A stretch of 32,000 bases of DNA from Maledivibacter halophilus (GCF_900167445.1 NZ_FUZT01000003.1:215400-247399); one strand, 5' to 3'. Positions 2,078 to 3,093 are shown, counted from the stretch's first letter. Program-made: numbers and translations. Notes: generated by a model from the sequence alone, not told the origin.

Positions 2078-2326
2078 CTAGAAAAATGGGTTAGCAAATA
2101 ACAGAATTAGTGCCACGATTAATCCATAAATACCAGTAGTCTCTGCTACTGCTGCACCAAGAAGCATAGTTCTAACAATATCACCCTGAGCTTCCGGCTG
2201 TCTCCCAACACCTTCTGCACCTTTACCAGCTGCATAACCCTGACCAATTCCAGGTCCAATACCAGCTATCATAGCTAAACCTGCTCCAATTGCTGAACAC
2301 GCTTTTATTAAATCTACACCATTCAT
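2078..2326 (-). CDS. atpE: F-type ATP synthase c subunit, single hairpin, Na+-type binding signature
   Basis: 82 aa. [14 protein letters not shown] loop region and AVAETTGIY in helix 2. Q29/E62/T63/T64/Y67 line up with Q32/E65/S66/T67/Y70 of the Ilyobacter tartaricus c subunit. AAGGAGGAAG SD upstream. Confidence 0.95.
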
Positions 2327-2429
2327 TCTACTTCCTCCTTTAAATATTCACTCTTAAAATTCGTTTTCAAATTTGTGGGAAATATTTTTTGATTTGTACA
2401 CAAGTATCTAATTTGCAATAATATTAAAC

Positions 2430-2969
2430 TTACCTGATAAATGGATTTGCAAACATTAATACCAATGCAATTATAAGTGCATAAATACCTGTAGTTTGGG
2501 CCACTGCCTGACCTAAGAACATAGTTCTTACAACGGTGGAATATAATTTTGGCCTTCTTCCCACTGCCTCAGTAGCCTTTCCAGCTGCATAACCTTGTCC
2601 TATTCCTGGTCCAATACCAGCTATCATGGAAAATCCTGCTCCAATTGCTGCAGCAGCTAAAATTATAGATGCTCCTGTAACATTAACTATTGGATTTCCA
2701 TATAAAAGTATAACAGCAACTACTAAGGACAAAATACCAGATGTCTCTGCCACAGCTGCTCCTAAAAGCATAACCATAGTAGATTGTTTACTTGCCTTGG
2801 GATTAATCCCTACAGCCTCAGCACCCTTTCCGGCTGCGTAACCTTGCCCTATTCCTGGGCCAATACCAGCTATCATGGCAAGTCCAGCCCCAATAGCTGA
2901 GGCAGCATAGATCAAGGTCTCTTTGTCAAAGCTAAGCAGCCAAGCAAAGAACTTATCAATAAAATTCAT
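2430..2969 (-). CDS. atpE1: Fused double-hairpin (four-helix, V-type-like) c subunit; hairpin 1 keeps Glu, hairpin 2 has Gln
   Basis: Two tandem c-subunit repeats in one ORF, each with [14 protein letters not shown]. Hairpin 1 has AVAETSG and hairpin 2 has AVAQTTG. The track start at 2987 was trimmed to ATG at 2969, which has GGAGGAG 6-7 nt upstream and gives 179 aa. Confidence 0.9.
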
Positions 2970-3093
2970 GCTGCACTCCTCCTTCATGACTAAGCACTAA
3001 TTTGAGGAAATCTCATAGCTTTTAATTTAGCTATAAAATAAAGCACTCAAACCTTTGAAATAATACTCAAACCTCTTTGTTATAAATAAAACT

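Follow-up and report, generated by a model that had tools for sequence, protein, structure and literature searches.

What kind of rotor does an F-type ATP synthase operon specify when one of its two c subunit genes encodes two hairpins in a single polypeptide, with glutamine in place of the ion-binding glutamate in the second? The question is raised by a stretch of 32,000 nucleotides from Maledivibacter halophilus (GCF_900167445.1, NZ_FUZT01000003.1, positions 215400-247399; hereafter the window), near one end of which the atp genes lie on the minus strand. A preliminary description, made from the sequence alone, had read the locus as a rare F/V-hybrid rotor resembling that of Acetobacterium woodii but departing from it in the number of single-hairpin c genes. 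The likeness has withstood closer analysis; the rarity and the departure have not.

The rotor genes and their operon

The genes follow the order atpZ-I-a-c1-c-b-delta-alpha of an F-type operon, and the operon annotation bears out the order a, c1, c, b, delta, alpha given in the preliminary description. The first gene encodes a small AtpZ-like membrane protein (4207..4431, minus strand; PF09527 ATPase_gene1, E=1.3e-17) and occupies the same position in two public sequence sets, L081 and L082. On the same strand follow atpI, which encodes an assembly factor (3789..4199; PF03899 ATP-synt_I, E=1.7e-14), atpB, for the stator subunit a of Fo (3094..3792; PF00119 ATP-synt_A, E=1.1e-57), and atpE1, for the fused double-hairpin c subunit of 179 aa and about 18 kDa, hereafter c1 (2430..2969; two PF00137 ATP-synt_C stretches). 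The ordinary single-hairpin c subunit of 82 aa is encoded directly downstream, 103 nt away, by atpE2 (2078..2326, minus strand; PF00137, E=7.9e-20), which is preceded by an AAGGAGG ribosome-binding site and carries its Glu62 as a GAG codon at 2141-2143 within AVAETTG. Beyond it on this strand lie atpF, for Fo subunit b (1434..1949; PF00430, E=9.1e-25), atpH, for F1 subunit delta (OSCP; 904..1446; PF00213, E=3e-49), and the N-terminal part of atpA, for F1 subunit alpha, recognized by translation and cut by the window edge (1..883). The public contig L081, which agrees with the window at 100% identity for 6.5 kb, encodes a 508-aa ATP-synt_ab alpha subunit and then gamma, beta and epsilon; with this continuation through epsilon, the atp operon is complete and contains no third c gene.

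The reading frame of c1 extends over 2430..2987 on the minus strand, and its product holds two PF00137 stretches and, 83 residues apart, two copies of a 14-letter protein motif, in agreement with the two complete hairpins first described. Of its two possible start codons, the ATG at 2969 is preceded at 8 nt by GGAGG, whereas that at 2987 lacks a ribosome-binding site; the position of 2969 is also where the NCBI protein, the A. woodii protein and the homologues begin. The start at 2987 was dropped on these grounds and on that of the NCBI protein length; c1 is therefore 179 aa long and its key residues are E75 and Q158, so that the residues initially listed as E81 and Q164 are correct but their numbering is not. 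Hairpin 1 (aa 18-93; 2691..2918, minus strand) presents Q42...E75-T76-S77 and a G-I-N-P loop lacking the Arg of the F-type R-x-P, and its ion-binding carboxylate, Glu75, is indeed encoded by GAG at 2745..2747, in AVAETSG. Hairpin 2 (aa 101-176; 2442..2669, minus strand) presents Q125...Q158-T159-T160-Y163 and a G-R-R-P loop that keeps Arg-x-Pro; the codon that replaces the carboxylate, for Gln158, reads CAA at 2496..2498, in AVAQTTG, as originally reported.

Between the two halves of c1, 45 of 80 residues and 152 of 240 bases (63%) are identical, and an unprompted repeat search recovered three hairpin-coding copies, 66-77% identical to one another and spaced by 355 and 249 nt. With this degree of divergence in DNA, the repeat is an old duplication; that it is no assembly artefact had been argued in the preliminary description too. 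Two independent public read sets (L081 and L082) contain the reading frame intact, with neither a stop nor a frameshift splitting it; the second, 98.96% identical to the window, differs from it within c1 at eight positions, all silent, with no replacement. The NCBI protein of Maledivibacter halophilus, 179 aa long and 100% identical to c1, is recorded simply as "ATP synthase F0 subunit C", and the public annotation carries no flag for the special architecture.

No separate promoter or terminator signal is evident between c1 and c, and the 103-nt spacer folds no better than shuffled sequences (z=+1.0). Promoter-like sites between 800 and 5400 number 27, against 23.6 expected from shuffles, which is no enrichment, and an Rfam scan of the whole window returned no match. 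A G+C-rich stem-loop is found 17 nt past the c stop codon (2040..2061, minus strand), where a perfect stem of 9 bp, GGAGAUGG-AAAA-CCAUCUCC, is extended by an outer A/U stem and followed by a short U run; its minimum free energy is -33 kcal/mol (z=-4.0), and none of 200 shuffles folds as well. Folds of -12 kcal/mol or lower follow c in 35% of the listed relatives, versus 9% after c1. This stem-loop is possibly a transcript stabiliser or a partial terminator, favouring c over b, delta and F1.

Upstream of the operon, between wecB (UDP-GlcNAc 2-epimerase) and atpZ, lies an 844-nt, very A+T-rich stretch without a credible open reading frame (4432-5275), which presumably holds the atp promoter region; it has a terminator-like inverted repeat just after wecB, around 5165-5245, and no Rfam match. 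Farther off on the minus strand, about 9 kb upstream of the operon, are a ZIP metal transporter gene (11555-12304) and a Na+/H+ exchanger family gene (12450-13604; PF00999), a pair compatible with a sodium economy, not evidence for it. Inserted among housekeeping genes (prfA-prmC ... sua5-rpiB-upp) is a reading frame of 2004 aa (13955-19969, minus strand) with three C-terminal SLH domains, Big_4, aBig_2 and GLUG domains and an SbsC-like domain; its product has the appearance of an S-layer protein, or of a surface protein anchored to the cell wall, of very large size.

Kinship of c1 and c with known rotor subunits

Among all solved structures, the best match of c1 is chain J of 4BEM, the A. woodii c1 (E=1e-64, residues 1-178 against 5-182), with which it shares 113 of 178 residues (63%) in an ungapped alignment; the next matches are A. 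woodii c2, the c subunit of Fusobacterium nucleatum (3zk1) and the Na+-binding c subunit of Ilyobacter tartaricus (1yce). The single c is identical to A. woodii c2/3 at 71 of 79 positions (90%), every ligand position included; 1yce and 3zk1 match it at E values of about 1e-28, and 1yce likewise matches both hairpins of c1. An AlphaFold2 model of c1 built from 37 orthologues (mean pLDDT 81.5, pTM 0.72) has the four long helices that had been anticipated, and a Foldseek search with this model returned 4bem_J as top hit (TM 0.86, rmsd 2.6 A, 64% identity).

Correspondence with A. woodii goes beyond the protein itself. The two c1 subunits are colinear over their full length, with Q..ET in hairpin 1 and Q..QT in hairpin 2, and both operons run atpI-a-c1-c-b-delta-alpha; c1 is thus an end-to-end orthologue of AtpE1 in the same operon position, next to a c2/3-like neighbour, as the preliminary description had proposed. 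On every feature that can be tested in sequence, the c1 gene belongs to the A. woodii c1 family. The two operons differ as follows: the window operon has an additional atpZ-like gene in front, and A. woodii has two identical single-hairpin genes (atpE2 and atpE3) where the window has one. The latter was initially regarded as a departure from the known type, a view contradicted by the atp operon of Clostridium aceticum (CACET_c02130-c02220), which belongs to a different species and lineage and, likened here by its published description, encodes a c1 with Q..ET and Q..QT and one c2, without atpE3, as in M. halophilus (PMC7911925).

The term F/V hybrid, as applied in the preliminary description, holds for topology and not for sequence. 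The V/A-type c subunits of Enterococcus hirae (NtpK, 2BL2), yeast (Vma3) and Eubacterium callanderi (A1AO c) share with c1 four helices and one ion site per two hairpins, but their duplication is independent of that of c1. V-type c/K chains match the c1 model with TM scores of 0.55-0.64 and 15-25% identity, versus 70-73% identity between either c1 hairpin and the F-type c of the same operon, and on these grounds descent of c1 from a V-type proteolipid was rejected. A V/A-type proteolipid was likewise rejected as an identity for c1: both hairpins are F-type, the carboxylate lies in hairpin 1 and not in the last helix, and the neighbouring genes encode F-type a, b, delta (OSCP), alpha, gamma, beta and epsilon. 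Furthermore, four-helix subunits make up most of a V-type ring, whereas in the window a single-hairpin c is co-encoded. The carboxylate of E. hirae NtpK, Glu139, is located in the second hairpin, in helix 4 (PMC2359735), that of c1 in helix 2.

The ligand set of the single c consists, by position, of Q29, E62, T63, T64 and Y67, and thus displays the features of Na+-type c subunits: a Gln in helix 1, a Glu followed by Ser/Thr in helix 2, and a Tyr one turn on. In I. tartaricus, Na+ is bound by Gln32, Glu65 and the neighbouring subunit's Ser66 (PMC2359735), which correspond here to Q29, E62 and T63/T64, complemented by Y67. All four positions of the I. tartaricus and Propionigenium modestum c11 ring (1YCE), namely Gln32, Glu65, Ser/Thr66 and Tyr70, are therefore matched in the single c, though those rings are made of one kind of single hairpin and contain no fused subunit. 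In hairpin 1 of c1, Leu80 stands in place of the Tyr that in Na+-type c subunits forms a hydrogen bond with the Glu; A. woodii c1 has no Tyr there either, but a Phe.

Distribution and history of the fused gene

Hybrid-rotor genes had been presumed rare, a presumption that a survey of related genomes does not uphold. At least 80 related loci were found, each in a different species-level Clostridia genome, and at least 120 protein clusters share the multi-hairpin architecture; clustered at 90% identity, the best 120 are all multi-hairpin. Genera among the loci listed include Wukongibacter (89% identity), Fusibacter, Alkaliphilus, Natronincola, Geosporobacter, Acidaminobacter, Proteocatella, Dethiosulfatibacter and Petrocella, together with Cellulosilyticaceae, an Epulopiscium relative and others. 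In all 80 loci listed, the multi-hairpin gene opens with Glu then Gln, although one three-hairpin variant, L069, is elsewhere read E,T,Q.

One multi-hairpin gene followed by exactly one single-hairpin Glu gene is the arrangement in 74 of the 80 loci listed, so that a second single-hairpin gene is normally absent. The six exceptions are L065, with two single-hairpin genes, L005, L007, L045 and L047, with a second multi-hairpin gene, and L046, where the contig ends before the single-hairpin gene; L077 shows a further weak match that eluded classification. The additional genes form two tandem E,Q genes in each of L005 (5989-7071) and L007 (5989-7071), and in the Marinisporobacter metagenome-assembled genomes L045 (3231-4166) and L047 (3349-4161) a three-hairpin E,Q,Q gene located upstream of the two-hairpin gene at a distance of about 1.8 kb. 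At the single c carboxylate of Thermotalea metallivorans (L056, 6601-6960), Ala was read, probably a mis-hit of the pattern. The pair formed by c1 and a single c gene is the type already described in A. woodii and C. aceticum, and is common in related anaerobes.

Many relatives carry more than two fused hairpins. Three-hairpin genes reading E,Q,Q were found in L037, L045, L047, L053, L063, L064, L067, L071 and L077; that of L063 (5968-6789) belongs to Acidaminobacter hydrogenoformans DSM 2784, and that of L064 (5959-6789) to the complete genome of Clostridiaceae bacterium 35-E11. Four hairpins (E,Q,Q,Q) are encoded in L048 (5965-7038) and L054 (5704-6774), and five (E,Q,Q,Q,Q) in L066 (5929-7302). 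In others the E,Q pair itself is repeated, twice in L033 (5704-6795) and three times in L032 (3-1613), a pattern that L058 (1-1293), cut by the contig end, also fits. Proteins with more than two fused hairpins include those of Alkalibacter rhizosphaerae (P0017) and Crassaminicella indica (P0021), and three-hairpin forms account for about 35 of the best 120 protein clusters. Each gene of more than two hairpins is followed by one normal c gene. With only 58-81% DNA identity between the copies inside each of them, these genes are real and not assembly artefacts; several of them stem from isolate genomes. In the literature searched, no description was found of an F-type c subunit that has more than two hairpins.

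To trace the history of the duplication, the hairpins of A. woodii and of the 80 related loci listed were individually excised and set against each other across species. Mean identity is 0.80 for hairpin 1 against hairpin 1 and likewise for hairpin 2 against hairpin 2, but 0.63 for hairpin 1 against hairpin 2; single c subunits reach 0.915 among themselves. As each hairpin is closer to its own class, a single old duplication and fusion most likely preceded the split of these lineages, with both halves under selection since. Across the 37 species of the c1 alignment, mean column identity is 81%, and E75, Q158, Q42, Q125, N56-P57 and R139-P140 are invariant.

Of the two loops of c1, only the second keeps Arg-x-Pro. 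In F-type c subunits this loop contacts the central stalk (R41-Q42-P43 in E. coli c). Throughout the fused subunits, the last hairpin alone keeps Arg-x-Pro (GRRPK or GKRPK), and the earlier hairpins all have Asn-Pro (GINPK). Given this sole Arg-x-Pro, one loop per fused subunit may contact gamma/epsilon.

The predicted rotor and its coupling ion

The reading that we favour, with a probability of roughly 80%, is that in M. halophilus, or a near-identical strain, the operon supplies c1 and c to a Na+-type F1Fo ATP synthase whose mixed ring would have as many ion sites as hairpins minus one. The atpE1 gene goes back to an F-type c gene that was long ago duplicated in tandem and fused, and its product has four transmembrane helices arranged in two hairpins. 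Hairpin 1 keeps the ion-binding set Gln...Glu-Thr, and hairpin 2, with Gln in place of Glu, would be unable to hold the coupling ion; the ordinary c, with the full Gln...Glu-Thr-Thr...Tyr set, comes from atpE2. Both subunits most likely co-assemble into one ring with the help of AtpI. The Gln158 position would then be a blank, each turn would take one ion fewer, and slightly fewer ions, probably Na+, would be spent per ATP.

The mixed ring is expected because the window has all the A. woodii parts. In that organism, nine c2/3 subunits and one c1 form a ring of 11 hairpins with 10 Na+ sites, that is, about 3.3 Na+ per ATP (PMC9171764, PMC7793690, PMC8904574), and assembly of the c-ring requires the native AtpI (PMC8904574). 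Membranes of C. aceticum exhibit a Na+-stimulated ATPase activity, and the same paper refers to a review from 2015 on how hybrid rotors are distributed (PMC7911925). For M. halophilus itself, no experiments were found in the literature searched; a ring shared by both subunits, their ratio in it and the preference for Na+ over H+ are what we infer by analogy with these relatives.

As to the coupling ion, the genes could be exactly as found in an enzyme that is proton-coupled and retains Q..ET without Na+ dependence. Such a situation exists in Sporomusa ovata, whose ATPase and Rnf are Na+-independent despite the Q..ET motif (PMC9430772), and the motif is therefore no guarantee of Na+ coupling. 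We nevertheless consider proton coupling unlikely in the present case, given the 90% identity of the single c to the Na+-binding c2/3 of A. woodii at all ligand positions and the Na+ stimulation of the C. aceticum ATPase, encoded in a matching layout (PMC7911925). The organism's name, and likewise its relatives, suggest saline habitats, which also speaks against it, as does, weakly, the Na+/H+ exchanger gene 9 kb off.

Questioning the composition of the ring instead, c1 could be non-stoichiometric, either forming its own c1-only ring, in an alternative population of the enzyme, under some conditions or acting mainly as a seed that starts or sizes assembly. The good ribosome-binding site of its own and the 103-nt spacer before c would suit such a role, and the occurrence of 2 to 6 fused hairpins in relatives would be easily tolerated at a single special position or in a separate role. 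However, A. woodii c1 has been seen within the ring by crystallography and mass spectrometry (4BEM, PMC8904574), and the present sequence offers no hint of a regulated alternative, lacking any promoter or terminator signal between c1 and c; a non-stoichiometric c1 is thus very unlikely. Finally, the view that the fused gene is a pseudogene in decay or the artefact of an assembly error draws on nothing beyond the gene's nature as a tandem duplication, and its probability is negligible. It is refuted by the mere 63% DNA identity of the halves, by an intact reading frame with only silent differences in two independent read sets, by the conservation of c1 over 37 species with its many invariant residues, and by orthology to a protein of known crystal structure (4BEM).

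Within the favoured reading of a mixed, probably Na+-type ring, the proportion of the two subunits leaves room for a bolder proposal, which we rate as rather unlikely. The c1:c ratio may differ from 1:9, for instance with several c1 per ring, and the c1 family may represent a graded toolkit of subunits with 2, 3, 4, 5 or 6 hairpins, having one site each or one per pair, by which the ion/ATP ratio would be stepped. If subunits of more than two hairpins enter the ring, 2 to 4 sites would be removed at once. Were the toolkit to exist, the gene in the window would be the basic two-hairpin member of a series and not a lone copy of that of A. woodii.

The window adds one organism to a rotor type that has been solved at atomic resolution and whose gene layout has been reported in C. 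aceticum. As both genes are publicly named "ATP synthase F0 subunit C", the practical gain lies in better annotation. Unlike A. woodii, M. halophilus is not an acetogen, being a halophilic fermenter of amino acids and betaine, and the hybrid-rotor gene pair is indeed not confined to acetogens: it is standard in a large set of Clostridia, many of which ferment amino acids and come from saline or alkaline habitats. Its relevance would reside in the trimming of the ion cost of ATP by organisms that live near the thermodynamic limit.
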